DNA of 64,000 nucleotides from a virus. The notes below the pieces were generated by a model. That model made no database searches and was not told the DNA's origin. It was given only the letters and a program-made list of their open reading frames with translations. A program made the position numbers and the translations under genes. Below are positions 8,176-45,880 of the stretch, one piece after another. How positions within the stretch are numbered: the first letter of the stretch is position 1; each line of letters starts with the position of its first letter. The DNA is taken from IMG/VR virus record IMGVR_UViG_3300045988_122191, positions 44,922-108,921 of that record; one strand, 5' to 3'.

Positions 8176-8469
8176 TTGGATTATAAAAGAAGGTATCAAA
8201 CTCAAAAGAACAAGTATGAGCGTTTGAGAGAAAAATATAATAATGCGTTGGCTGAGAAAAAGTTGTTCGAGACGCAATATTCCGACTCCCTAAAGGAGAT
8301 TGACTCGTTAAACGAAGAGATCTCTAATCTAAAGGTAGAGTTGTCCAAAGCAATTCTGGACGCAACAACGCAGAGTGAGAAGTGCGCTGTTCTAAATAAG
8401 AAAATGGGTAAGCTGTTTAAAGAGATTGAACAAGAGTTTTATAGACGCTACCAGACAGTAGCAGAATAA
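8176..8469 (+). CDS. small coiled-coil protein, hypothetical
   Basis: TTG start 7 nt after GGAGG. 97-aa ORF with heptad-like charged/hydrophobic pattern, sitting between TMP and Dit. Confidence 0.4.
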   Translation: MDYKRRYQTQKNKYERLREKYNNALAEKKLFETQYSDSLKEIDSLNEEISNLKVELSKAILDATTQSEKCAVLNKKMGKLFKEIEQEFYRRYQTVAE

Positions 8470-8488
8470 AAGAATAGGAGGTTACTAT

Positions 8489-9304
8489 ATGAGAGCAACA
8501 GATTTCATATATGATGGCGTGCAACTTAGTAGCCTCGGCTACATCGTATGCACGTTTGATAGCGGCGGCACCGACAGTAGTTCTGCTGGGTCTGAGATTA
8601 CTTTTAACTCTGTCAAGCAACACGGCGGAGTTTATTATGCTCAAACGGGAACGGAGTACGAGCAGTGTTTTTCCACCACATTTAGCATCTGCAAGAATAC
8701 CACAGATGGGCCTGGCCAGGAGATTTCCTTGGACGAGTACCGCAAGTTGATGCGTTGGTTAAACCGCAGACGGTTTTATGACTTTGCTTTGCTTGACCCA
8801 AAAGAAAACGGGTGGAAGGATATAACCTTCCAGGGAAGTTTCAACGTGGAAAAGATTGAGTTTGCCGGAAATATTATTGGGTTGAACCTTACCTTTAATA
8901 CTAACCGTCCGTTTGGCGTTGGTAAAGCTACTACTGTTGCGTTCTCTATAGAAGCCGCTAATGGCACTTATAATATAACAAACGACTCGGACGAGATTGG
9001 GGTACTTTATCCTGACCTCTTAGAAGTTACTTGTAAGCAGGCCGGGGATCTCTCTATTACTAATAATCTGGAAGGGCGGGTTACATTTATAACCGGCTGC
9101 ACTGCTGGAGAAAAGATAACAATGGACTGCGTAGACAAGATTGTCACATCTTCCCTAGCCTCCCACAAAAAGATTTATAACGATTTCAATTTCACATTCT
9201 TCCGGCTCTATAACTCTTATTCGGATCGCGTAAACACTATTACCTTCTCCATACCGTGTGACGTAAAAATTATTTACAGGCCGATACGGAAGGTGGTGTT
9301 CTAA
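8489..9304 (+). CDS. distal tail protein (Dit-like)
   Basis: RBS AGGAGG 8 nt upstream. 271-aa ORF immediately after the TMP and before Tal, the canonical siphovirus order. Size and position match the Dit family. Confidence 0.7.
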   Translation: MRATDFIYDGVQLSSLGYIVCTFDSGGTDSSSAGSEITFNSVKQHGGVYYAQTGTEYEQCFSTTFSICKNTTDGPGQEISLDEYRKLMRWLNRRRFYDFALLDPKENGWKDITFQGSFNVEKIEFAGNIIGLNLTFNTNRPFGVGKATTVAFSIEAANGTYNITNDSDEIGVLYPDLLEVTCKQAGDLSITNNLEGRVTFITGCTAGEKITMDCVDKIVTSSLASHKKIYNDFNFTFFRLYNSYSDRVNTITFSIPCDVKIIYRPIRKVVF

Positions 9305-12300: not shown

Positions 12301-13104
12301 TCGGACGGAACATTTAATTTAGGTGATGGCTCAGTTATCTGGGACAATGAGAATAGCCTGATAAAATCTAAGAACTACAAAGAAGCAGTTAATAGCAACC
12401 CAGGCAGCGGTTCAGCACTAAACTTGGAGAATGGTAAGTTTAGTTTCGGTGGCGGGGCGTTAGTGTACGATGGCTCTGATTTAATTATTAAGGGAAAGAT
12501 GAGGGGCAGTGCTATTGATATCCAGGCAGAGACCGGGAATGAGCGGCTGCGGCTGGGTACTTCGGTGAATGCGGAGACCAATGCGTCTGCCATCAGCATG
12601 TCCGTGAAAGATACTCAGTCCAACGCCAGCGCAGAGGTGACCGTCAACGCAGTGGGCGTCACCATGGATGGGGTTCAGCTGGATCTGCTGGGAGAGTGGA
12701 TCGCCATCGGGGACGCAAATGTCGCGTCAGAGACCGAATTTTATGGGCATGTGGTCCTGCCGGGTGGAAATTTGGAGGACAAAGACTACAGCAGCACCAC
12801 ATATACCAGCTTTTCCGGCGGAGTTCTGTCGTCCGGGTCGGTGACGGTGACCAAAAAGCTGGGGGTATGCTACATCAGCGGCACAGTGACCTTGTCCAAG
12901 AGCATCAGCGCCTGGACTACCATCCTGTCCAGCTCCAAGATCCCGGCACCGCAGCACGGAGAGTTGGTTCCGTTTGAGGCATCCCAGTGGGGAACGAGCT
13001 ATGCTCGGCCCCTGCGCGGGAAGATTACGCCCAGCGGCGGGCTGCAGCTGGTCTATGGCGCTGCGGGAAATTATGTATTTACAATTGCTTACCCAATCGA
13101 CTGA
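9304..13104 (+). CDS. tail-associated protein / tail fibre (Tal-like, 1266 aa)
   Basis: Start overlaps the Dit stop (TAATG). N-terminal region is typical of prophage tail endopeptidase/Tal proteins. Contains a CxxC...CxxC zinc-ribbon insert (CLDCGYRGEFDGNCPECN). The last ~190 codons have markedly higher GC than the rest. Confidence 0.8.
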   Translation: MAIRIQFDGTGSPECPTLVLAKRGGEKLGVLNTADNISLSDRLSDSCELSFDIYKEFDGRVCPIWDKVVDFKLVWCKEWDKWFSISVNTQESSSVMKSITATSLGEAELSQILLHDIEINTEDDIDRDDYDENFPTILYRPDRPDASLLHRLMEKAPHYSIGHVDSTIAKLQRTFSFDGDSIKDAFDAVAEEIGCLFVYPSGSTDKGTPSRTVEVYDLERACLDCGYRGEFDGNCPECNSSNINEGYGQDTTIFVSTENLTDEVSYETDTGSVKNCFRLTAGDDLMTATVRLCNPSGGGYIWCITDDTKEDMSDELVAKINSYDELCHHYDEEAGSSIDATILVSYNELVDKYKSMNENLEKITSPIAGYSNLVKAYFSAIEFGSYLQTSMMPTYEHQETNAAAQAALLTTDNLSPIAVSKLTSSTSKATVESALKAMAKVFIDTSRFKFTINTTSWVNTEGNTPTWTGNFTVTSYTEEGDVATSSTISVVVTDNYADYAKQLVEKKIAISDTEDVSITGLFKLELEQFTNNLKKYSMDCLDEFEDCCQDVLNILTESGGGETTSIMYDQYYLPYYNKLLAIQAEKDVRSSELMIILGDEGAETASDEPVLGVKQYIERAQEEIRGALDLETYLGHDLWVEFSSYRREDEYSNDNFISDGLTDSELVDQAFQFIDKAKKEIYKSANLQHTITATLKNLLVIPAFAPIVDYFSVGNWIRVKVDGAVYRLRLVSYDLDYSDMDSLSVEFSDVTKTLSGTADVADILSRASSMASTFDYVTKQAVKGSDASGILSNWTENGLSTTHTKIIDSADNQNMVVDQHGTLYRKFDPMTEKYEDIQMKIINSTIAITDDNWKSTRAALGRFFYVNPKTKKYTEGYGINGEVLCGKLLLGESLGIYNSDNSMRFDADGLTVTNGTNTVTIDPKEGDSVLSIVSENGTVISFNKDGTANFTGNVNATSLSTGGKGSIESTNDGIYIAADGSIYIGKYNESVQRCVSEIKSDGTFNLGDGSVIWDNENSLIKSKNYKEAVNSNPGSGSALNLENGKFSFGGGALVYDGSDLIIKGKMRGSAIDIQAETGNERLRLGTSVNAETNASAISMSVKDTQSNASAEVTVNAVGVTMDGVQLDLLGEWIAIGDANVASETEFYGHVVLPGGNLEDKDYSSTTYTSFSGGVLSSGSVTVTKKLGVCYISGTVTLSKSISAWTTILSSSKIPAPQHGELVPFEASQWGTSYARPLRGKITPSGGLQLVYGAAGNYVFTIAYPID

Positions 13105-26594: not shown

Positions 26595-27098
26595 CTAATC
26601 TGTAATCCATTTGACCCATACGCCATCTTGTTTTTTCCAAACAATCTGGTTACTGCTGCCTCGGAACTGAAGGGTGACATCTCGCTTGTCGATCTCAAAC
26701 TTCCCGTCTACTAAATACGTGCATCTATCTAATAGCTGAGACATATCTTTGTCTTGCTGCACCTGTCCCATTAGCAGCCCTGTGTAGCACCAGAGGTTAT
26801 CATTAGGGATATGGATCTTATCAATAATGGAAACCAGTTCCCCGGCGGAGAACATAGGGTCTCCGCCGGACAGAACCAGTGCGTTTAAAAACGGTCTTTT
26901 ATCAATCTCAAAATTGATTCTATCAATTACATCTTGTGTGATTTCAAGCCCATAATTAAAGTCATGGGTCTGTGGCGACTGACAGCCTGGGCAGTTATTT
27001 CGACACCCCGAAATAAACAGCACACAAGCTACACCCTCTGCATCACAGAAGGATTCCCAGTCATAGCCTGCGAGCTTAACCAAATAGCTCACCTGCAT
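26595..27098 (-). CDS. nrdG: anaerobic ribonucleotide reductase activating protein (radical SAM)
   Basis: CX3CX2C as GCRNNCPGC near the N-terminus. 167 aa. Immediately downstream of nrdD with a 23-nt overlap. Confidence 0.8.
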   Translation of the reverse strand: MQVSYLVKLAGYDWESFCDAEGVACVLFISGCRNNCPGCQSPQTHDFNYGLEITQDVIDRINFEIDKRPFLNALVLSGGDPMFSAGELVSIIDKIHIPNDNLWCYTGLLMGQVQQDKDMSQLLDRCTYLVDGKFEIDKRDVTLQFRGSSNQIVWKKQDGVWVKWITD

Positions 27099-29337
27099 CT
27101 TGATATGTACTATGTTTCACTCTTTCTTCTACCTCTGCTTGTTTGCCGTCGTTAAAATTGTGGTAATCAGTAGAAAGATATCCTGTTACGCGACGTAGCT
27201 GCTGGATGTTCTTGCTTCCGCATTCAGGACAACTATTATTAAACTCGCCCTGATATCCGCAATCTAAGCAACTATCAATTGGGAAATTGAAAGCAAGATA
27301 CGGAATATCAAGCTCTTTAAAAGCATAATCAATAATATCTTCCACAGCTTTAGTATTCTTTACGAAGGTGCTCGACAATTCTACGTAAGTAATAGTGCCA
27401 CCTGTCGGATACTTACAGAACGGAGCTTCAATACGAAGCTTGTCATAGATAGACACCTTTTCCCATACAGGCACATGGTGGGAGTTTGTCAGATAATCAT
27501 GAGATGTAACATCTTTAATAACACCATATTGCTCTCTAAGCGCAACCAGCGCTGTACGCGCTAATGTTTCGGCCGGAGTCGCGTAACATGAGAAATTCAG
27601 GTCATTTCGCTTAGATGCCTCTGCCGCAAACTCATTGATTCTTTTTACAACAGATAGCGCAAAGGCGTGAATATCCTTGTCGTGAACATGATTTTTCCCG
27701 AATAGCGCTTGACACATCTCTGCAACTCCAATGAAGCCTATGGCAAGCGTGTTGCCTTTTAAAGCATTAAACACGTCGTCTTCACACTCACGTGCTTTTT
27801 GGATTGTATTGTTTTCATACATAAACGGAGCAGCTTTCGGTGATTGCCGAACCATGATTTCGAACCGCTCTAGCAGCCCTCTCTCACACAGTTTTAATGT
27901 TTCCTCAAAAGCGTTCCAGAACCCGTCGAGATCTGGCTTTGTGCGCTCTCCTAGGCAAATACCAAACTCGATTCCGAGCTTCGGGAGAATAATTGTGTTG
28001 GGTACATTATTCCCTCTGCCTTGGCGGATATACCCAAGGCCATGGCGATCATACCCCAGCATAGTTCTACAACCCATGGTACTAAACCAGGTGTCCGGGT
28101 TGTCGTCGTCCTCATGCGCTTGAGACCAATCACCGTTACACCAGTTCGGGTAAATTCGTTTGCTCATTGACTTTAAGGCAAGCTGTTTGAGGTCGTAATT
28201 TTTATCTTCAGGATTTGCATTAACACCTTGCTTGTACTGGAAGATGCTAATTGGGAAGATGCTTGTCAGATGGTGTTTACCGATCCCATCTAGGCTGGCT
28301 TCAAAAACCCACTTGGTTATGAGTCGGCCTTCGACGGATGTATCTCTGCCAAGGTTGATTGACGTGAATGGCACCTGCGAACCTTGCCGTGATTCTAGTG
28401 TATTCAGGTTATGGTACAACGCCTGAGTCGATTGCTGCCCCTCTCTCTCTAACATATCCATAGCGTACTGATATGCTTTCGGGTAATATGATTTGAAAAC
28501 TGGATTGTCAATATGCCAATCATCTGTTTCAAAAATAACTATATCTCCAATTCCCCTCACAGTTGGTTCGTCGATGTATTTCTTTCCGTCTTCATAATGT
28601 TTGCGAAAGCTTTTCTTTACAAACGGAGCGAGATCCAGGTCAAAGTGTACCGTGCCGCAGCCACCGTACTGGATCTGGCTTTGGCACTGAAAAGCGACGG
28701 CGACAAGCTGACACGCTGTGCTGAAGCTTGCGGGTGGTCGCACATCTCCGTTTCTAGTGTGAAACCCGTATGTAAACAGCTCTTGGAAATTAACGTTAAG
28801 GCAATTGTGCATACCGTAAATCGCCTTCTCCAGGTCGTGCTGATAAATCAACATTTCCTTATGAGCTTTTGCTACTTCGTCAGATAGACCGCCATACTCT
28901 AAGGCAATCATCTTACCGATATCAGCAGATGCCTCTTTTTCTCTGCCTGAAAAGCTCTTCTCGTCCACATTTGCATTAGATCTATTATCTACACTGGACG
29001 TTGCGCGATCCAAAACCTTCTGAACAAGCCGTCCGTTCCGCTCTCTTACCTTCGTTCTCTCATTTCTGTATAGGATGTATGCTTTTGCCACATCTTTTCT
29101 GTCAGATTCCATAAGTTTGGCTTCAACAATATCTTGAATTTCCTCAACAGACTTGCTTTTTTTCATTTCAGCAGTCACGGCGACCGCAATTTCCTTTGCA
29201 ACAGCTGCACACTGCCCATTTTCTTCCCCATCGACGCTTACAAACGCCTTCTTTACTGCTTCTTCTATCTTTTTAGGGGAAAATTTCTCTAACCGACCGT
29301 CTCTTTTGATTACAAATAGCTCGATAATCAACCACAA
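27076..29337 (-). CDS. nrdD: anaerobic ribonucleoside-triphosphate reductase (class III)
   Basis: 753 aa with an ATP-cone-like N-terminus. C-terminal zinc ribbon CLDCGYQGEFNNSCPECG followed by the glycyl-radical region RRVTGYLS. Confidence 0.9.
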   Translation of the reverse strand: MWLIIELFVIKRDGRLEKFSPKKIEEAVKKAFVSVDGEENGQCAAVAKEIAVAVTAEMKKSKSVEEIQDIVEAKLMESDRKDVAKAYILYRNERTKVRERNGRLVQKVLDRATSSVDNRSNANVDEKSFSGREKEASADIGKMIALEYGGLSDEVAKAHKEMLIYQHDLEKAIYGMHNCLNVNFQELFTYGFHTRNGDVRPPASFSTACQLVAVAFQCQSQIQYGGCGTVHFDLDLAPFVKKSFRKHYEDGKKYIDEPTVRGIGDIVIFETDDWHIDNPVFKSYYPKAYQYAMDMLEREGQQSTQALYHNLNTLESRQGSQVPFTSINLGRDTSVEGRLITKWVFEASLDGIGKHHLTSIFPISIFQYKQGVNANPEDKNYDLKQLALKSMSKRIYPNWCNGDWSQAHEDDDNPDTWFSTMGCRTMLGYDRHGLGYIRQGRGNNVPNTIILPKLGIEFGICLGERTKPDLDGFWNAFEETLKLCERGLLERFEIMVRQSPKAAPFMYENNTIQKARECEDDVFNALKGNTLAIGFIGVAEMCQALFGKNHVHDKDIHAFALSVVKRINEFAAEASKRNDLNFSCYATPAETLARTALVALREQYGVIKDVTSHDYLTNSHHVPVWEKVSIYDKLRIEAPFCKYPTGGTITYVELSSTFVKNTKAVEDIIDYAFKELDIPYLAFNFPIDSCLDCGYQGEFNNSCPECGSKNIQQLRRVTGYLSTDYHNFNDGKQAEVEERVKHSTYQDAGELFG

Positions 29338-30482: not shown

Positions 30483-31661
30483 TCACTCCAATACTTTGTA
30501 GTCGTTCAAATACCAATACCCTTTCTTGTTCTTGTACAGACCTGCGCCGAACAGGATATTGTATTGAGCGAAAGGCTTCTTATCAAAAATAGACTTACGA
30601 ACCGTGAGTCTTGCCTCGTTACCAGTCCCGATAGACCGAACTGTTGTGGCAACACCCCACACTCCGTTAGGCCCATTCAGGTCAAACGTCTCAAGAACAA
30701 TCAGCTTTCTTCTGTCTTGCGGATCATTGGTCGTGATGTCTATGTACCCCATTAGTCCAAGCTGATCCATGATCCTACTCCTCACATCAGCCTCTTCAAT
30801 ACCAAGACTTAGAACATTGCGCTCACATTCCTCCAATAAGCCGGGCATATCTGTGATCGTATAAGACTTTAGCTCATTGCCCTTCACGCCAACGTCTGTC
30901 GCGTGTCGCTTTACTATTTCACACATCGGCCCTTCTTTAAGCTTTGTCTTCTTAATAGATTTGGCCGTGCCATCATTAAAGAACTTGAAGATGTCGTATA
31001 TTCTTTGCAACTCACGGGTGTTGCCATACTCAGAAAAGAACCCTATGCGGATTAGATTTAAGAGTTGTCGCTCATTACACGACGTCTCTGATCTAATTCG
31101 AATGAGTGTCTCCATAAATGTCTTCGGTTTCTTCTGGTGATACATGGCATAGAGTTGCTGCGGCACAACTTTGTTAAGATACTTTACAGAGCTGATACCT
31201 TTGGATACGATCTTTCTGTCCGGGTCAAACATGTACTGGTCAGACGACGCACCAAACATCGGGGGCGTAATCTTCAGCCCGTATATCTGTGCAAGCTTAG
31301 TGCCGTTTCTGATATCCTCATCCTTTGCTGGATTATTTAGATAACTCGTCACAAACTCATACGGATGATAACAACGCAACCACGCACACAAAAACCCAAC
31401 CAGACAATAGCTAATAGAGTGATTGTAACCAAACTGATATGACGCACTGTCCTCCAGTATCTGAAGGAACTCTTTTGCTTCTTCTTCGGCCACTTCTCGT
31501 GGCTTATCTGACTTACTACAATACCCGTCAAGAATTTTTGGAAGCGCAGCGTCTAATCTATCTTTGTCCTTTCTACCAATGGCTCGGCGGATATTGTCAC
31601 TTTCAGAACCAGACAACCCGCAGATTTGTTGCAGGAATTTAATCGTGTCTTCCTGATAAAT
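30483..31661 (-). CDS. dnaE: DNA polymerase III alpha subunit, C-terminal segment (exon 2)
   Basis: The reading frame is open upstream of the annotated TTG as ...YQEDTIKFLQQICGLSGSESDNIRRAIGRK, matching DnaE [26 protein letters not shown]. Pol III alpha C-terminal region follows. Confidence 0.8.
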   Translation of the reverse strand: MYQEDTIKFLQQICGLSGSESDNIRRAIGRKDKDRLDAALPKILDGYCSKSDKPREVAEEEAKEFLQILEDSASYQFGYNHSISYCLVGFLCAWLRCYHPYEFVTSYLNNPAKDEDIRNGTKLAQIYGLKITPPMFGASSDQYMFDPDRKIVSKGISSVKYLNKVVPQQLYAMYHQKKPKTFMETLIRIRSETSCNERQLLNLIRIGFFSEYGNTRELQRIYDIFKFFNDGTAKSIKKTKLKEGPMCEIVKRHATDVGVKGNELKSYTITDMPGLLEECERNVLSLGIEEADVRSRIMDQLGLMGYIDITTNDPQDRRKLIVLETFDLNGPNGVWGVATTVRSIGTGNEARLTVRKSIFDKKPFAQYNILFGAGLYKNKKGYWYLNDYKVLE

Positions 31662-32618
31662 TAGATCCGTTTTATTATGTGCTATGTATCTCTTTCATCT
31701 TAATCGCATCTTCGAGCGGGATGCCTCGACGGATTCTAGCTCTTAACGTCGTGTATTTTATTCCCGTTCTTCTGGCCCATTCTGCCATGGTTAATGTTTC
31801 GCCATTGTAAGTAAACAGTTTATTGCTTGATTGGTTATTGCATTGTGATGTATGGTTAGACCACCTACAATTCGACGGGCAGTAATCTTTTGAGTTATCT
31901 ATCCTGTCAATTGTACATTCTTGTGGGGCCGCGTACTCGTTATATCCATTCTCGATTGCCCACTCTGAAAACGCCGTAAAATCGTTTCGCCATTCTTCGC
32001 ATACCGCAATGCCTTTCCCGCCATAATACTTATAGTTTTCAGAATTCTTATTGTAACAACGGTTTTTAATACCAGCCCACACACGATACAGTCTTGTTTT
32101 CGACGCTTTATGTGTCGTCATTCTTTCTCTAACTAGCTCTCTTTGAAGACACCCGCATGAACGAGTGTCTCCGGTAATTAGGTCACGGCTTGACACTACC
32201 TTTTCTTTGCCACAGTCGCATCGGCAACGCCACGTTGCGTTTTTTGCCTTATCGCTACCAGCTCTATCGACTACCAACAGTCTTCCAAACTGTTGCCCTT
32301 TTAATTGATACATACATTCACCTCCTTCATAATTTATTTACATAGCACTTAGTTCGCTAAACTATCCTCTACCATTTCGATAGAGCGTAGACTATATCTT
32401 CATCCGTTTTATCCGGATGCCCACCGCTTCGAACCGCCGATCGCTTGCGGTCCTACTTGCATACGCAATAGTCGTTGAACCTTTCTCTGTTCGAGACTTG
32501 GCTGCTGATTGCCCAATCTACATTCTTTTCAAACCATCACGCTTATCTTTGTTTCAAAATTACGTTGTGGCGAATATAGCTCTAAGGGGTTTCCAGCAAT
32601 TCAATGGGTTTGCAAGCG
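31659..32618 (-). mobile_element. intervening sequence in dnaE: putative group I intron carrying an HNH homing endonuclease ORF (boundaries approximate)
   Basis: About 960 nt separate DnaE ...ELLADNNG(LEIVPV) from (DL)IYQED.... It holds ~290 nt of ORF-free sequence upstream of the HNH gene. The HNH ORF has its own SD (AAGGAGGTG) and ends ~15 nt before the exon-2 homology. Confidence 0.55.
31675..32313 (-). CDS. HNH homing endonuclease (AP2-like plus HNH plus C-terminal HTH)
   Basis: RLYRVWAGIKNRCYNKNSENYKYYGGKGIAVCEEW, HNH motif IDRIDNSKDYCPSNCRWSNHTSQCNNQ, and C-terminal MAEWARRTGIKYTTLRARIRRGIPLEDAI. Confidence 0.8.
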   Translation of the reverse strand: MYQLKGQQFGRLLVVDRAGSDKAKNATWRCRCDCGKEKVVSSRDLITGDTRSCGCLQRELVRERMTTHKASKTRLYRVWAGIKNRCYNKNSENYKYYGGKGIAVCEEWRNDFTAFSEWAIENGYNEYAAPQECTIDRIDNSKDYCPSNCRWSNHTSQCNNQSSNKLFTYNGETLTMAEWARRTGIKYTTLRARIRRGIPLEDAIKMKEIHST

Positions 32619-34598
32619 CATATTACTATGCACCGGGACTATCTCTAATCCATTATTGTCCGCAAGCAACTCGTCAATCATTGGCGACGGGTTATGATGT
32701 GGAACTCTACTTATCAAATCATTTCTATACGACGCGCCAGACGGGCGAATACACGCAGTCACCAACGACATATCAAAGATCGACTTCGTGTTGAAGTCCT
32801 TTAGCATCTTTCCTGCAAAGGGAGATTCCATCTGAAAGATGCCGATATTGGAAACCATCATGTCTTCCCAAACCTTTTGGTCACCCCAATCTATTTCATG
32901 TGACTTCGGGTATGGGATGTTTGCCAGTTTGCAAGCGTCACGAATAATTTGTAGCGTACTTAGAACAAGCATGTCGTACTTAACGAGAGACACCTCATGG
33001 ATTTCTTCCATGTCAATCTGAAGTACGATACCGCTATCCTTGTGGTGAAAAACGCCATAGTTATCATCTAATGTAACAGGGCTGATCACAATGCCAGCCG
33101 GATGTACAGATTGTGATACTCTTGTATTCAGGAACCCATCAAAATAATAGAACGTTTCTTTGTATCTCTCTCTGCACGTTTCTGCATCCTTTCCGTAATC
33201 TGCTTTAATCTTTGCCGCTAGACTTACTGGATATGGGTTTTCGTTTTTGTCCGCTTCCGGATGTTGCTCTGCCCATTTATGTCTGAACCCACGCACAATC
33301 TCTTCGATAGTCGCCAAGCCTTTTAGTGTACCGCATGATGGAACGAACGCAGTCTTCCGTTGCCCGAATCGTTCAATAATGTAATTGAAGATCTTAGGCC
33401 GGTCATCTTCAATAACGTCTGTGTCGATATCGCCTACTTCAATCCGGTCCTCATTGCAAAAGCGGCTGAATACCGTATGCCATGTTTCCGGGTTAACATC
33501 TGTAATATCTGTCACATAAGCAACTCTTGACCCAGCTACACTGCCACGCCCAGGACCTGTTACAATTCCATTCTCATGACACCATGTAAGAATCTCGCTC
33601 ATGGATTGCATGAACCCGCACATCCCAAGTTTTGTGAATACTCTAAGCTCTTCTTTAATTGCGTCTCGGAACGCTTGTTCTTGCTCTCTTGGGATGATTC
33701 CGGCCTCTAACTTTGCTTCTAGCTTTTCGTTAATATTCTGGATAAATTTTTCTCTATCTTCTTCTGCAGACCCATAAAGGATTGGGTATTTCAAAGAAGT
33801 ATCTAATTCAAACTCCTCAACCTGATTTGCCATCAAGACTGTATTGTCTATCGCGGCCTGCCATGCTTCTTCTGGGATAGCGTCTTGTTTTTTAAAAGCT
33901 TCCCCCAGTTCCTCGCGCGACTTATACGTTAGATCAAAATCATCTTCCGTGTCATAATGCTTACTCTTTGCATAAGCAAGCAACGACCGACACTCAGCGT
34001 AGTATTGGTCGATACTGTGCGTGTCTGTTGCCGCAATCAAAGGGATGCCATACCTTTGAGACAGCGCTGCCAAGTGTCTGTTATAGACAATCTGATCTTC
34101 ACAATCGTGCGGTTGGATCTCAAGGTAGTCATACTTCTTTACGAGCTTCTCGTAGTACGGATGACTTACGTCCAGCTTGTTCAGTGGTGAAGCCAAACAA
34201 GCGGACGTTTTGATAATATTCGGAGAGATATTCAAAAACTCATCAAACGAAAGTCGCCCGACGTAGTATTTATGTTCTTCATCCGTTGACATACTAAGCA
34301 ACTTATTAAGTTCCAAAAACCCTTGTCGGTTCTTCGCTATCAGAATCGTATGATAGTTATCTCTCACTTTCTCATGTAGAGATTCCGTCAAATAAATTTC
34401 CACGCCATGTAGATACTTGACACCTGCTGCATCACAAGCCATCTTCTTGGCAACCCATCCACGGATGTTGCCATGCTCGGTGAAGCAAATAGCCTTCTGC
34501 CCAAGCTGCTTTGCCTTCTCTATGTAAAGGTTAAAATCTGTCGTCGAGTCCAACAGCGAATAGTCGCTGTGAACATGATACGCAACATAATTATCCAA
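32601..34598 (-). CDS. dnaE: DNA polymerase III alpha subunit, N-terminal segment (exon 1; the last ~6 codons before the stop are probably intron-encoded read-through)
   Basis: PHP domain start YHVHSDYSLLDS. Palm/fingers motifs ...KYDMLVLSTLQII..., IGIFQMES and ACIRPSGAS. Homology to DnaE is lost at ...GLEIVPV. Confidence 0.8.
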   Translation of the reverse strand: MDNYVAYHVHSDYSLLDSTTDFNLYIEKAKQLGQKAICFTEHGNIRGWVAKKMACDAAGVKYLHGVEIYLTESLHEKVRDNYHTILIAKNRQGFLELNKLLSMSTDEEHKYYVGRLSFDEFLNISPNIIKTSACLASPLNKLDVSHPYYEKLVKKYDYLEIQPHDCEDQIVYNRHLAALSQRYGIPLIAATDTHSIDQYYAECRSLLAYAKSKHYDTEDDFDLTYKSREELGEAFKKQDAIPEEAWQAAIDNTVLMANQVEEFELDTSLKYPILYGSAEEDREKFIQNINEKLEAKLEAGIIPREQEQAFRDAIKEELRVFTKLGMCGFMQSMSEILTWCHENGIVTGPGRGSVAGSRVAYVTDITDVNPETWHTVFSRFCNEDRIEVGDIDTDVIEDDRPKIFNYIIERFGQRKTAFVPSCGTLKGLATIEEIVRGFRHKWAEQHPEADKNENPYPVSLAAKIKADYGKDAETCRERYKETFYYFDGFLNTRVSQSVHPAGIVISPVTLDDNYGVFHHKDSGIVLQIDMEEIHEVSLVKYDMLVLSTLQIIRDACKLANIPYPKSHEIDWGDQKVWEDMMVSNIGIFQMESPFAGKMLKDFNTKSIFDMSLVTACIRPSGASYRNDLISRVPHHNPSPMIDELLADNNGLEIVPVHSNMRLQTH

Positions 34599-34601
34599 CC
34601 A

Positions 34602-37448
34602 TCATCCTCCTCCCTGTATCACTCCGTACACTTCCGATTCCATATCTAATGGAGCACATGGAACGCGGGTAGTGTAAATCTTGTCATCCCATTTATATCT
34701 GCGGTCATACTCTTCGTAGTTCGTAAAGAACCTCCGGCACGCTTCGTCGTAGTATAAGCCGAGTTCAAAACCAGCCCTTCCTCGCATACGATCTTTTGTT
34801 ACAGACACAACGCAGGAATACTGCGAGAACTTTGATGTTCCTTGTTCTTTCTCGTCCTGCCGCACTCTTCGTAAAGACAATGTTCGGTGTGCAAGATTGG
34901 GGAGGTTTGATGTGCCGCCAATATCGTACAACGCAACTGCTCCCGGTGTTGTACCGCTTGGGATTTTACGAGGGTGTGCAACCAGAATCACACACACGTT
35001 AAACTTTGAGGCGAACTGAATCAGCCAGTTGACCAGCTCGGTCTGTTTGTCATACTTGTTCTCGTCAGAAGAGTGCAGGTCTATTGTCATTAGGTTGTCC
35101 AACAGGAACAACTTACTGCCATACTTTCTAGCTGAGGCTTCCATAGATTCCTGGATTGATTCAATATCATTCGGCCATTCATTCTTATACACAAACCACT
35201 GGCCTCTATAACAATCGTTGATTTTTTCTTTCGCTTCTCTCGAAGCAACCCAGTAGACCGCGCCGTTCTTACCGGTGTGTTCTTCAACGTTCCTCGGCCC
35301 CGCGAGCAGGTAGTTCATCCACGCCTTGCTCATGAAGTCCGGTAACTCTCTTGAGAAAATCCAAGCACCTCTGTTTTGCTCAAGTGCATTACAGATAAGC
35401 TGGTACAAGAAGCTGGTCTTGCCGGAACCTGGCGTGCCGGTCACGAGCGTTAACGTCCCGAAGAACAGTTTAAACAGTTCCCTGTCGAGGCTTTCAATAC
35501 CAAAATAAATCCCGTCCAAGTCACTGATATTAACGTCCTCGACGTCACTAAGATCCATCACACTGTCAATCGGAGACTCCTTCGCGCTAAGAATTGCGTT
35601 CATCACCGCTTCTTTTCCCTTGTAATAAAGCAACTCATTCAAATCCTTAATGTGCCTACCAGTTGCTTCATCTATTGGCGGGATGTCTACCACCTTTGTC
35701 CTCCAGGAACCAAGTCTAGGGCACACATCTTTTGCCATTTGATAACCAGCTTTATCATTGTCAGAGCAGATAATAATTTCGGAAAACTGGTCTAGCCAAT
35801 CCATATTCTCTTCAATCCAGTGGTGATTTTGAGAACCTAAAGGAACGCTCACCGCGTTTGTATATCCGGACTCGATAGCAGCCATTGCGTCGCAGTTGCC
35901 TGTAACAAAAATTGTCCCGTATTGCCTCACTAAGATCATTCCACTTGGAACCGTCACACAATAAACTGGACCGCTGTAATACTGCGTGTCATATGTAATA
36001 TTGTTTAGATCCGCTTTTTTCTTACCTGTGATTGACACACGATAGCTCCCGTCCAATGTAGACAACTGGTATTTAACAGAGCATTGCTGTCCGCTTGTGT
36101 GAGCAATCGTCTGCATCACATTAGCGTTATCCAGTTTGCAGGCATAGCCTGCAGTCCATTTCTGAAATCGCCGAAGGATCACGAGCTTTTGTGTTTCAGA
36201 CGTGGTGCTAACCCACGAATAAGAGACGGGTTCTATGTGAACATGTGACGGGATCTTGAACAACAATTTAAAACCATAATCAGAAACTGGCGTCTCAACG
36301 TAACTAACGGATAGTTTCTTGAGAAGCCGCCGCAACCTACGCCGTTTTCTCTTTTCTGTCGTCAAGAGTCTGTACTCACCAGTGCTCTTGTCATAACTAC
36401 AGTTCTCCGATATAGCAATTGATAGTTCGACTTCATCCATAGTGAGAAAAAACCCATCGCCTGAATAACTCGTTGTAATTGGAGCCGATTTATACCAATC
36501 ATCTGGCAGTTTCCTCGCCTTCGTCTTCTCTAGAAAACCAAGAGCATTATAAGTTACAATATTATGGCCTCCAGTTACACACGACACATAGTTATCCGCA
36601 GCAATGAAGGAGAGGAACCCTTCGTAGTGCTCGTTGATAATTGCAACCGGTCTTACAAATCCGCCACGCAGTTTCGACCAAGTACCAGCAAATAGGTCAT
36701 CCGCGCACACCGAATACACGTCCTGCCCGTGATATTCATTAAACCGAACCCATCCATCAGGCGTTAGAATTTCTGCGTCACCAGGGAAGCACTCACCTTC
36801 AGTTATCAATAACGGTTGACTTATGTTTACCCTGTTCATATTGAAAAGGAGCGGACGAGTGTCCGCTCCTTTCTGACACCAGTTCTTAGCTTCGCCTTTT
36901 GACTTGTCAATTTTTCTAGCCGGTCGGTACTTTACCATCGTCAGTACGTCGTTCGTATCATAGTAATTAAACACAGCGTTGCCATGTTCATCCTCCCGCA
37001 CATCGCAATGGTCTAACGTCTTTTCACTAATCTTTCTCGTAGCCATGTACTGGTTTACGATTGACCGATCTCTTAACGGAGTCTGCTGAGGATAGCGATA
37101 CCCCCTATGAGTCTTGATGCCTTTCTCTCCAAAGCTATATACCATCCCAGCTTCTTCAAAAGTTTTCTCTGCCGCTTCAAGATATGTATCGCCAGACATC
37201 ACATAGGCGTCAATAATATCAATATTGCAGCCGCATCCAAAGCAGTGAAAACTATAGGCTTTCGGATTATAAATAAAGCTCGGAGTGTCTTCTTGATGCA
37301 CCGGGCATAATGATTTCAAGTTAGACGGATCAAACAATTTAAGGTCAAGTGTTTCAGCAATCAAGAATGGAGTTCTGTCTCCGACCTTCTCTTTTGCCTT
37401 TTGTAATTTTTCCTTTTCAATTAGCATTTCGTTCTCACCATCTACCAC
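34602..37448 (-). CDS. primase-helicase (CHC2 zinc finger, TOPRIM, DnaB/RepA-like P-loop helicase) with an intein
   Basis: Zn finger CPVHQEDT...HCFGCGC. TOPRIM LLITEGE|(intein)|CDAMAAIESGY. Helicase Walker A TGTPGSGKTSF. Confidence 0.8.
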   Translation of the reverse strand: MVDGENEMLIEKEKLQKAKEKVGDRTPFLIAETLDLKLFDPSNLKSLCPVHQEDTPSFIYNPKAYSFHCFGCGCNIDIIDAYVMSGDTYLEAAEKTFEEAGMVYSFGEKGIKTHRGYRYPQQTPLRDRSIVNQYMATRKISEKTLDHCDVREDEHGNAVFNYYDTNDVLTMVKYRPARKIDKSKGEAKNWCQKGADTRPLLFNMNRVNISQPLLITEGECFPGDAEILTPDGWVRFNEYHGQDVYSVCADDLFAGTWSKLRGGFVRPVAIINEHYEGFLSFIAADNYVSCVTGGHNIVTYNALGFLEKTKARKLPDDWYKSAPITTSYSGDGFFLTMDEVELSIAISENCSYDKSTGEYRLLTTEKRKRRRLRRLLKKLSVSYVETPVSDYGFKLLFKIPSHVHIEPVSYSWVSTTSETQKLVILRRFQKWTAGYACKLDNANVMQTIAHTSGQQCSVKYQLSTLDGSYRVSITGKKKADLNNITYDTQYYSGPVYCVTVPSGMILVRQYGTIFVTGNCDAMAAIESGYTNAVSVPLGSQNHHWIEENMDWLDQFSEIIICSDNDKAGYQMAKDVCPRLGSWRTKVVDIPPIDEATGRHIKDLNELLYYKGKEAVMNAILSAKESPIDSVMDLSDVEDVNISDLDGIYFGIESLDRELFKLFFGTLTLVTGTPGSGKTSFLYQLICNALEQNRGAWIFSRELPDFMSKAWMNYLLAGPRNVEEHTGKNGAVYWVASREAKEKINDCYRGQWFVYKNEWPNDIESIQESMEASARKYGSKLFLLDNLMTIDLHSSDENKYDKQTELVNWLIQFASKFNVCVILVAHPRKIPSGTTPGAVALYDIGGTSNLPNLAHRTLSLRRVRQDEKEQGTSKFSQYSCVVSVTKDRMRGRAGFELGLYYDEACRRFFTNYEEYDRRYKWDDKIYTTRVPCAPLDMESEVYGVIQGGG
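35895..36791 (-). mobile_element. intein (299 aa) inserted in the TOPRIM EGE-CDA motif of the primase-helicase
   Basis: Block A CFPGDAEILTPDGWVRF begins immediately after TEGE. Block B is VTGGHNIV. Blocks F/G are VYCVTVPSGMILVRQYGTIFVTGN followed by the +1 Cys of CDAMAA. Confidence 0.6.
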
Positions 37449-43846: not shown

Positions 43847-45880
43847 TCATTCCTCCACTATGTAATTATTTAAAAATCCTTCTTCTGAAAGAATCGGGAT
43901 TCCCATGCTAACAGCTTTCTTGAGTTTCGAGCTTCCGCCCTGCGGATCATTGCAAACCAGACAAGTCGTGTCTTTTGTCACACTTAACGACACGCTCCAG
44001 CCCGCACCTTTTGCAACCTCCTCGAACTCTTTTCTTGACTTAAACGTCTTCAGTTTGCCAGTCACGCAAACCGTCATTCCTGCGTTCTTCTTGTTTTCCC
44101 TAACAGTAATAGCTAAATAGCAACTCAACGACGTAATCTCCTCAGAATGTCTTTTGACATAGTCGTTAATCCCATCACTGGTTTTTGCGCCAACCCCATT
44201 GAGATTGCTCCAATCCGCATCAGTATTTGCCATATCGCACAACGTCTCAGCAAACGAGCACTCGCCCATTACTTCAAAGATTGCCTCAGCTATAACCGGT
44301 GCAGAGGATTTCCCTACGCCAGGAATTCCTATTGCAACAATAAAGTTTTCTGCCGCACAAGTCTTGCTTTTCTCTATCGCGGCCAGCAGCTTGTCCACGC
44401 TGGCGTCACCAAACCCGTCGAGCTGCTTCATATCATCACAATATCTGTCGAGCTGGTAAACATCAGCAAGATTCTTCAACCATCCGTTGTTGACGAAAAG
44501 CTTGATGCGCTCCGTAGACAGGCCATCAATATTCATCCCTTGCCTAGACACGAAGTTTGAAATCCTGTCTACCAAAACCGCAGGACAATTATCGTTACTA
44601 CACTCAAGACGCTGAGCTTCGTTACTTGATACAACTCTAGCGGCTTCCCCGCAGACCGGACAGTGTTCCGGAATTGAATACGTGTCACTCTGAGTAAGGT
44701 TACGAACAACCATCGGGATGATTTGATTAGCCTTGATGACTTCAATTTCGTCGCCAATCCCAAGCTTTAGCTTTTTAATCTGGCTTACATTAGAAAGGCT
44801 CGCCCTGCTTACAGTCGTGCCATCAATTTCTACAGGGTCGAACACAGCGACTGGGTTGATCGTGCCGGTCCTCGTAGTATTCCACTCAATGCTTCTAAGC
44901 GTTGTCAGATTTCTCTCCTGATAGAACTTAAAGGCGAAGCTATGATTTGGGTGGTGAGAAGTCTCGCCTAGCGACCGCCCATATTTCTGATCGCAGAATG
45001 TTCCGACCACTCCGTCGATTGGGTATGGCGTACGCTTCATTGTCTCCATGGTACGGCTCACAAATTCCTTGACGTTAGCACCGCCCTTACCGGAAGAAGG
45101 GACAGGCACAATCCGAGCGGTCGTAAACCCTAGGTCGCTCAGCACCTGCATGGCGTCTCGAAAATCTTTATCTTGAAATCCAGGTGTAGAATTTCGCCAC
45201 GCTATGAAACTGACATTTCGTCTACACAAAACAGCACTGTCTAGCTGTCTGACAGTTCCACTCACAAGGTTGCGGGGGTTCTTATAGCAGGTGTTTTCGG
45301 CATTTTTGATTTTTTCAAAATCTTCATAGCTGATCACTGCTTCCCCATCTACATACAGCTTGCCTTGATATGGAATGGTTAACGGGATATTAGTGAACTC
45401 TTTTGCGTTATGAGTGATATCCTCGCCGACAGTACCATCTCCTCGTGTCTCGGCGCGTTTAAGGACGCCATGTTCGTATGTAAGAGCGCAAGTAATACCA
45501 TCTAGTTTCGGCATCAATACGAACTCATGCTGATTAAAATACGCAACAAACTCATCTAGCCCGGTCGTCTTAGCGAGGGACAGTAACTTGTGTGTATGCG
45601 TTACCTTTCTCAGATCACTAACCACTTTGCTACCAACAGTTCTTGTCGGAGAGCTTGAGTATGTAATACCTGTTTCTTTTTCAAGCCACGCTAACGCATC
45701 TACAAACTTGTCAAACTCCCTGTCGCTTACTACATTTTCGCCACCATTAAAATAGCTATCGTTGAGACAATTTATAAAATATATTAGCTCTTGCATGAGT
45801 TCGATGTCGTTAAGACGCTGCTGCTCTTTATCAAGTAATATCGGCTTATACATTGACATAAGCACAAACCCCAATTGCAA
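43847..45880 (-). CDS. ligA: NAD-dependent DNA ligase
   Basis: Adenylation motif PKLDGI, OB domain, zinc finger CPVCG...CSNDNCP, HhH region and C-terminal BRCT. 677 aa. Confidence 0.9.
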   Translation of the reverse strand: MQLGFVLMSMYKPILLDKEQQRLNDIELMQELIYFINCLNDSYFNGGENVVSDREFDKFVDALAWLEKETGITYSSSPTRTVGSKVVSDLRKVTHTHKLLSLAKTTGLDEFVAYFNQHEFVLMPKLDGITCALTYEHGVLKRAETRGDGTVGEDITHNAKEFTNIPLTIPYQGKLYVDGEAVISYEDFEKIKNAENTCYKNPRNLVSGTVRQLDSAVLCRRNVSFIAWRNSTPGFQDKDFRDAMQVLSDLGFTTARIVPVPSSGKGGANVKEFVSRTMETMKRTPYPIDGVVGTFCDQKYGRSLGETSHHPNHSFAFKFYQERNLTTLRSIEWNTTRTGTINPVAVFDPVEIDGTTVSRASLSNVSQIKKLKLGIGDEIEVIKANQIIPMVVRNLTQSDTYSIPEHCPVCGEAARVVSSNEAQRLECSNDNCPAVLVDRISNFVSRQGMNIDGLSTERIKLFVNNGWLKNLADVYQLDRYCDDMKQLDGFGDASVDKLLAAIEKSKTCAAENFIVAIGIPGVGKSSAPVIAEAIFEVMGECSFAETLCDMANTDADWSNLNGVGAKTSDGINDYVKRHSEEITSLSCYLAITVRENKKNAGMTVCVTGKLKTFKSRKEFEEVAKGAGWSVSLSVTKDTTCLVCNDPQGGSSKLKKAVSMGIPILSEEGFLNNYIVEE

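Follow-up and report, generated by a model that had tools for sequence, protein, structure and literature searches.

A phage dnaE gene interrupted by a probable self-splicing group I intron

Introduction

Group I introns that carry HNH-type endonuclease genes are a classic feature of phage DNA polymerase genes, with examples in SPO1/SP82, T7-like phages and the cyanophage Pf-WMP3 (PMC3428280), and among Bastillevirinae polymerase genes almost one in two is split, with PHROG 2081 being an intron-encoded 'HNH endonuclease' family of the polymerase introns in that group (PMC11878797). Here we describe a comparable arrangement in the phage gene dnaE, which encodes DNA polymerase III alpha. The DNA analysed (the window, throughout) is a 64,000-nucleotide (nt) stretch of the IMG/VR virus record IMGVR_UViG_3300045988_122191, positions 44,922 to 108,921, and dnaE lies on its minus strand, as does every feature of the locus for which coordinates are given below. 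Judged by its sequence and its relatives, we conclude that 31667..32647 is a group I intron within this gene, one that would be spliced from the transcript to give a single polymerase.

The closest described systems are the introns of the Bacillus phages SPO1/SP82 (I-HmuI/I-HmuII) and of the Bastillevirinae. Like them, the dnaE element is a group IA-type intron in a replicative polymerase gene, self-splicing in their case and predicted to be so in ours; in all of them the endonuclease gene lies in a loop apart from the ribozyme, relatives with and without the intron exist, and one gene may hold several introns. The likeness to the Bastillevirinae extends to PHROG 2081, which the open reading frame (ORF) of the dnaE intron matches with E 2.1e-28. 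The differences lie in the host gene, a C-family polymerase here (DnaE, PHP plus pol III alpha) and one of another family there, and in the position of the ORF, which here lies in a loop at the 3' end, with 8 nt between it and the splice site. The ORF product also lacks what we take to be the canonical histidine of the I-HmuI-type enzymes. The phage polymerase intron of PMC3428280 likewise pairs a group IA2-type intron with an HNH-family homing endonuclease in a DNA polymerase gene, but differs in polymerase family, phage group and endonuclease architecture.

Split and intein-interrupted DnaE proteins of cyanobacteria and other bacteria also present a selfish element in dnaE, where splicing must restore the product. 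DnaE inteins, however, are in frame and act at the protein level, whereas the insert described here has stops and an RNA core and would be removed at the RNA level. An intein reading is excluded by the stop 45 nt into the exon-1 frame and by the position of the intron ORF in a different frame. In full-text literature searches no report turned up of a phage dnaE (DNA polymerase III alpha) gene with a group I intron, a result whose incomplete coverage makes it weak evidence of absence. The element is an ordinary, apparently mobile group I intron of a known kind, in a host gene for which we found no published example.

Organization of the interrupted gene

The ORF list gives a first dnaE ORF of 665 amino acids (aa) at 32601..34598, a last dnaE ORF of 377 aa as called at 30483..31616 and, between the two, a 212-aa intron ORF at 31675..32313. 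A first-pass annotation of the window had read the outer pair of adjacent minus-strand ORFs as the N- and C-terminal parts of DnaE, and the division of Pfam domains bears this out. Exon 1 (32648..34598, 650 codons followed by base 1 of the junction codon, ending ...AAUGGAU) was placed by Pfam, with its boundary taken from the intron-less allele L018 described below, and contains PHP (PF02811), the polymerase core (PF07733) and, of the finger domain, the N-terminal portion (PF17657 positions 1-113). Exon 2 (30483..31666, starting AUCUAAUU...) was placed by Pfam, the spliced-protein alignment and intron-less alleles and, with its frame extended upstream, contains the finger-domain remainder (PF17657 positions 116-161), HHH_6 and the C-terminal region. 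The finger-domain model has 166 positions, and since one such domain is divided over both ORFs (1-113 and 116-161), they represent a single DnaE cut in two.

The exon-2 frame does continue upstream of the called start, as the first-pass annotation held, and reads ...DLIYQEDTIKFLQQICGLSGSESDNIRRAIGRK; the leading 'D' of the peptide given in that annotation does not belong to the exon. The junction codon is U|AU (Tyr), of which exon 2 supplies the last two bases. The frame of exon 1 runs on into the intron to a UGA stop at 32601..32603, which is 45-47 nt into the intron and falls in the 5' strand of P3, so an unspliced message would end at this UGA (32603..32601) and yield the shortened 665-aa product. 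Joining 32648 to 31666 creates a single open frame of 1044 aa, and the spliced junction, LLADNNG-Y-LIYQEDTIKF, aligns without gaps to phage DnaEs that have no interruption, which read LLKDSLGWLVFQEQ and LLKDNNGFLVFQED there. A megablast comparison of the whole gene with phage records found no match.

Identity and boundaries of the intron

The first-pass annotation proposed a probable group I intron, to be checked by a covariance-model search for group I elements and by comparison with intron-less dnaE, and it holds up on both counts. Rfam family RF00028 (group I catalytic intron), whose gathering score is 50, matches 32693..32367 on the minus strand over model positions 1-253 with 82.8 bits, and the full core is present. 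The E values (5.5e-21 for the region, 1.5e-19 for the whole window) exclude a chance origin of the match, which is the sole Rfam match in the whole window; RF00028 matched likewise in five related contigs. By blastn, the core is similar to introns of many phages, including Enterocloster, Staphylococcus, Bacillus, Serratia and Streptococcus phages.

The exact ends are set by L018, a gut-metagenome contig with an intron-less 1044-aa DnaE that is 97% identical to that of the window. On either side of the junction its DNA is identical to that of the window, and what it lacks is exactly gene positions 1952-2932 (31667..32647); a shift of the boundary by one base in either direction fails to give the L018 sequence. 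The junction expected in the ligated exons is ...AAUAAUGGAU/AUCUAAUUUAUC, and L018 reads ...GACAATAATGGATATCTAATTTATCAGG...; the splice sites that P1 and the terminal G predict coincide with the junction of a natural intron-less allele. A second intron-less allele, in the IMG/VR contig L008, is more diverged. The intron therefore comprises 981 nt, from UAGAGAUAGUCC... to ...AAUAAAACGG, with its terminal G at 31667, and its 3' end (...AAAACGG|AUCUAAUU) is fixed to the base by L018. At the same site, the introns of the related contigs L031 and L066/L120 end in ...AAAACGG and ...UUUUCAG, respectively.

The first-pass annotation placed an insert of approximately 960 nt here, with ends (31659..32618) that need correction. 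The 5' end fell 29 nt inside the intron, because the frame of exon 1 extends 45 nt into the intron before its stop, and the 3' end fell 8 nt inside exon 2.

Structure of the ribozyme

The P1 hairpin (32636..32651) pairs exon GGAU and intron UA (32651..32646) with the guide UAGUCC (32641..32636) across a GAGA loop, and places a U·G wobble at the 5' splice site, where U32648 is the last base of the exon. The remaining core (32367..32634) was delineated from the Rfam alignment, a minimum free energy (MFE) fold and pair counts, and its helices were drawn by hand: P2 (32634-27/32622-15), P3 (32608-02/32426-20), P4 (32598-93/32508-03), P5 with its extension and P6/P6a (within 32367..32634), the P7 pseudoknot GACUA/UAGUC (32473-69/32394-90), P7.1 (32468-65/32460-57), P7.2 (32453-47/32437-31), P8 (32419-14/32406-01) and P9 (32385-79/32373-67). 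A small hairpin, P9.1 (32364..32350), follows P9 and precedes the helix that closes the ORF-containing loop. The MFE fold of 32660..32314 recovers P1, P2, P3, P4, P5 with its extension, P6, P7.1, P7.2, P8 and P9, with the pseudoknot P7 missing; its z-score is -3.1, and none of 100 shuffles folds as well.

Introns at the same dnaE codon, in DnaE genes that are 60-70% identical in protein, allow the structure to be tested by comparison. They are found in L019 (partial intron), L031 (990 nt, Rfam 76.3 bits), L120 (998 nt) and L066/L129 (329 nt, without an ORF); L031 was found through contigs with homologues of the ORF, and L066, L120 and L129 by a scan for a conserved P3-P4 motif. Pairs were counted in a MAFFT alignment of a small set of five sequences (the window, L031, L066, L019 and an Enterocloster phage intron). 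The structure had been drawn from the window sequence, itself one of the five, and the test is conservative because the alignment was not fitted to the structure. Standard pairs occupy 91.1% of the cells, as compared with 34.6-45.1% in controls that displace the 3' partners by 1-3 columns, and changes on both sides are seen at 21 of the 66 pairs, as compared with 3-8 in these controls; on four of the five measures, 0/500 shuffles attain the observed value.

The compensatory changes include 3-5 both-side pair changes in each of P2, P3, P6a and P7.2 (four in P3, four in P7.2). All cells of P3 are paired (100%), P7 is invariant and 100% paired, and P4, P6, P8 and P9 are all present; in group I introns it is the P3/P7 pseudoknot that makes up the guanosine-binding site. 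The U·G wobble of P1 is kept in all four sequences that cover it, and the adjacent pair changes from A-U to G-C in L019 and L066, where exon GGAU becomes GGGU and guide GUCC becomes GCCC.

Two further pairings were considered and rejected. One, an 8-nt AU-rich complement (I5) linking the intron with exon 2, was dropped because it could not nest with the helix that closes the ORF loop. A perfect 10-nt complement between 32377..32386 (the 5' strand of P9) and 32261..32270 (ORF codons 15-18), considered as a regulatory alternative pairing, is unsupported: it is not conserved in L031 or L120, lies at approximately chance level in 1.1 kb and is probably without meaning.

Placement and translation signals of the intron ORF

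The ORF starts 334 nt into the intron, downstream of P9 and P9.1, and is preceded by AAGGAGGTG. The ORF-free, structured RNA of the first-pass annotation is thus present, at 334 nt and not approximately 290 nt. That annotation also credited the ORF with a Shine-Dalgarno sequence of its own, and AAGGAGGUG indeed lies upstream of the AUG (32319..32327, read from the sequence), with its GGAGG core ending 7 nt before the start codon. At the other end, the stop codon ends 8 nt ahead of the 3' splice site, so the close spacing to exon 2 was correctly seen, although not its length, which had been put at approximately 15 nt.

The ORF is enclosed by a helix whose 5' strand, UAAGUGCUAUGUA (32339..32351), lies just past P9.1 and whose 3' strand, UACAUAGCACAUA (31676..31688), overlaps the last ORF codons and the stop. 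These strands form an inverted repeat (I1) of 13 nt with 92% complementarity and a duplex energy of -15.5 kcal/mol, and the helix would return the 3' splice site to the core. L031 and L120 have 13-base-pair (bp) closing helices at the same place, of unrelated sequence, and the ORF-less intron of L066 is without the loop.

An HNH-like protein with an atypical active site

In the 212-aa product (31675..32313), an N-terminal Cys cluster (CxCxC...CxC) is followed by a middle domain and a predicted beta-beta-alpha motif, TIDRIDNSKDYCPSNCRWSNHTSQCNN, and the C-terminal tail is helix-turn-helix-like. The product matches PHROG 374 (E 5.7e-72), 3377, 2081 and 953, all of which are named 'HNH endonuclease', and TIDRIDNSKDYCPSNCRWSNHTSQCNN is predicted to form strand-loop-strand-helix, the topology of the His-Me finger, with a predicted local distance difference test (pLDDT) score of 91. 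The best nuclease fold match is PacI. Other searches returned nothing of use: Pfam gave no family at E up to 10, NCBIfam no relevant family, PDB sequence searches (single-sequence and profile) nothing, and Foldseek against PDB noise only. More than 7,800 homologues are present in public data, where the sources label the protein 'hypothetical'.

Among 36 diverse members of this family, the five Cys residues of the N-terminal cluster, His68, Arg74, Arg137, Tyr144, Pro146, Asn148, Cys149 and Gln157 are invariant, and Asp136 and Asn160 nearly so. The position usually held by the catalytic His, following Asp136, is occupied by Arg137 in 36/36 aligned members. A near-identical copy of the ORF in L009 (IMGVR_UViG_3300045988_107889) carries D136N within this conserved D-R motif, a change that may be inactivating. 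Thus, the HNH endonuclease of the first-pass annotation finds support in the PHROG names and in the predicted beta-beta-alpha motif, but not in Pfam, where no HNH match was found, nor in the active site, with its invariant Arg for the catalytic His. We regard the product as HNH-like with an atypical site, its canonical HNH membership not established and its activity predicted.

A few His-Me finger groups are known to lack the His, and PacI uses a Tyr in its place (PMC5714182). PacI (PDB 3m7k) is a restriction enzyme and is not intron-encoded, and it has no detectable sequence similarity to the dnaE intron ORF. It is possible, if doubtful, that the ORF belongs to a large uncharacterized family of homing endonucleases that have lost the His and act in a PacI-like manner, with Tyr144, in the inter-strand loop, starting cleavage and the Cys cluster and helix-turn-helix-like tail recognizing the target; the role given to Tyr144 is a guess. 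If true, this would make the family a mechanistically distinct class of intron-encoded endonuclease, residing at a dnaE homing site.

Distribution and mobility

The 12 intron loci that we retrieved collapse to about seven distinct contigs. Their intron copies are 98.6-99.7% identical, whereas exon stretches 300-800 nt upstream in the same contigs are only 72-90% identical. Intron-less L008 shows 66-79% identity within 200-300 nt on each side of the site and 85-99% elsewhere. Such mosaic flanks are the pattern produced by gene conversion around a homing site, and, as L018 demonstrates, empty sites flanked by cognate sequence are still in circulation. The variable presence of the intron among near-identical phages, together with the mosaic flanks, suggests that it is mobile. 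Searches with an exact P8-P9 pattern (viral contigs) and a degenerate P1-P2 pattern (viral and metagenome contigs) recovered only close copies from the same phage group.

Among the close copies there are three differences in the 334-nt core and 17 in the 639-nt ORF, which is open in all of them; these small numbers hint that the ORF is under weaker constraint than the ribozyme. At the same dnaE codon, L066/L129 (329 nt) and L120 (998 nt) have near-identical ribozymes, without and with an endonuclease-like ORF, respectively, and the ORF block of L120 sits 8 nt before the 3' splice site, with a 13-bp closing helix of its own. Since the L120 and L066 ribozymes are near-identical, gain or loss of the ORF is recent there, which makes them a clear instance of such a change inside an intron.

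Other interruptions in this and other phages

At least two further positions in dnaE give group I signals in this phage clade. In L024 (6242..6484) a group I intron without an ORF follows approximately aa 745 (51.8 bits), and a 300-nt gap follows approximately aa 626 in L025 (5851..6141), with a sub-threshold RF00028 match of 25.5 bits. L129 has a second dnaE gap, of 354 nt (12723..13078), approximately 80 aa downstream of the site studied here. Elsewhere in GenBank, phage dnaE genes are split at other sites in two isolated phages, Thomasclavelia phage TR-TP1 (L002) and Lysinibacillus phage LC76P1 (L003), in the latter at the catalytic DxD region; the intervening ORF is annotated as HNH endonuclease in TR-TP1 and as hypothetical protein in LC76P1, and no RF00028 match in either insertion reaches the gathering score.

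Other genes are also affected. Enterocloster phage CB457P1 (L001 3946..4277; OP172753.1 ~8285..8616) has a group I intron that is missing from its annotation (RF00028, 93.6 bits). The ORF downstream is annotated 'intron-associated endonuclease 1', and the two hypothetical-protein coding sequences that flank the intron are probably exons of one gene. In L020 (12552..12814; also L021 and L022), which are close relatives of the phage studied here, nrdD is split into ORFs of 427 and 328 aa by 264 nt, a gap exactly filled by a sub-threshold RF00028 match (19.8 bits, E 0.0098 in a 551-nt search); the nrdD gene of the window (27076..29337) is intact at 753 aa. L020 (ENA ERZ27287570 k141_87095) contains its phage region, intron included, within a metagenome contig of 549,279 nt, the complete-looking relatives being approximately 106 kb. 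The phage could be resident in a bacterial genome as a prophage or episome, and so give a clue to the host, or the contig could be an assembly chimera.

Finally, the DnaG-DnaB primase-helicase of the window (ORF 34602..37448) has a 299-aa in-frame insertion (35895..36791, minus strand) between the Toprim 'EGE' and the next 'D'. The homologues in L019 and L025, of 633 aa and 642 aa, lack it. The insertion starts with Cys (CFPGDAEILTPDGW), contains TGGH and ends in VYCVTV...FVTGN followed by Cys. These boundaries and blocks are intein-like; the residue before the final Asn is Gly, not His, and searches of Pfam and of PDB sequences did not recognize the insertion.

Discussion

Overall, we believe with a probability of about 0.93 that the intron self-splices from the dnaE transcript by the two-step, guanosine-initiated pathway, yielding a single DnaE. 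The transcript would fold into the P1-P9 core, with the ORF held in the 3'-terminal loop by the 13-bp closing helix so that the ribozyme could fold around it. An external guanosine would then attack after U32648, in the U·G pair of P1, the freed end of exon 1 would attack after the terminal G31667, and the resulting messenger RNA would encode DnaE as one 1044-aa protein, joined as ...LLADNNG-Y-LIYQED.... The ORF would be translated from its own Shine-Dalgarno sequence, and its product, most likely a site-specific DNA endonuclease, would cut or nick intron-less dnaE alleles at co-infection; through repair, those alleles would then acquire the intron together with part of the flanking exon sequence.

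At the same time, several points weigh against this account or its details. Splicing activity, endonuclease activity and cleavage chemistry are all inferred from sequence. The Rfam alignment set P1 and P2 on exon sequence, and the true P1 and P2 come from the hand drawing; the exon-located helices were dropped, as covariation and the intron-less allele support the other P1 and P2. A proposed P10 (AUCU/AGAU) is short and is absent from L031. Subgroup IA is recognized by two extra helices after P7 and before the 3' strand of P3, and by its P7.1 and P7.2 the intron appears IA-like (IA2-like), a label based on these helices and on likeness to other phage introns. With Arg at the catalytic His position in all 36 members, nuclease activity is not assured, and 13 of the 17 ORF substitutions among close copies are non-synonymous, with D136N present in one copy.

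The last two of these points would also suit a decayed relic, an immobile element whose ribozyme splices and whose ORF encodes no active endonuclease, as would the failure of the ORF to match the Pfam HNH family and the existence of ORF-less versions at the same site. We consider this unlikely. The invariance of the Arg, Tyr144, Asn148 and Gln157 in 36 diverse members speaks for a conserved site and not for decay, the ORF is open in every copy seen and has its >7,800 homologues, and the occurrence of a near-identical intron among phages with differing exons suggests recent spread. Loss of the His need not mean loss of activity, PacI being an active His-less member of the fold (PMC5714182).

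That a free-standing homing endonuclease gene splits dnaE, the alternative named in the first-pass annotation, and that two polypeptides form the polymerase with no RNA splicing, seems to us very improbable. Genes fractured by endonuclease genes are known (PMC2677866), and both gene callers and public annotation list three separate genes here, for 'DNA polymerase-3 subunit alpha' (665 aa), a hypothetical protein (212 aa) and a third protein of 377 aa. Such a model would have to contend with a full group I core between exon 1 and the ORF, a break inside a single domain, and a 377-aa ORF that begins 50 nt past the point where homology resumes, at the cost of 17 conserved residues (YLIYQEDTIKFLQQICG). 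It would also have to explain why intron-less alleles lack precisely this insert, with no base more or less, at the very sites that P1 and the terminal G predict. Given the core, its covariation and the natural intron-less junction, a free-standing gene is not needed. Least probable of all is a non-functional group I remnant in a dnaE pseudogene, the phage using the host polymerase: nothing speaks for it beyond splicing being an inference, both exons are open and conserved in many contigs, the core has 3 differences in 334 nt against 17 in 639 nt for the ORF among close copies, and all helices are intact, with compensatory changes.

The group I intron reading changes how the locus should be annotated, namely as one spliced 1044-aa DnaE plus an intron ORF. 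The present misannotation, in which 'DNA polymerase-3 subunit alpha' is cut short and the remainder is entered as a hypothetical protein and an unnamed ORF, recurs across a phage group that is common in the human gut. The understanding of such elements is unchanged by this example, and the endonuclease-like family, with its unusual active-site motif, may merit biochemical work. With dnaE, a C-family replicative polymerase joins the phage genes colonized by group I introns, and at this one site nature provides a series, from the empty site with identical flanks through an ORF-less intron to ORF-bearing introns, that is well suited to studying how introns and endonucleases are gained and lost.

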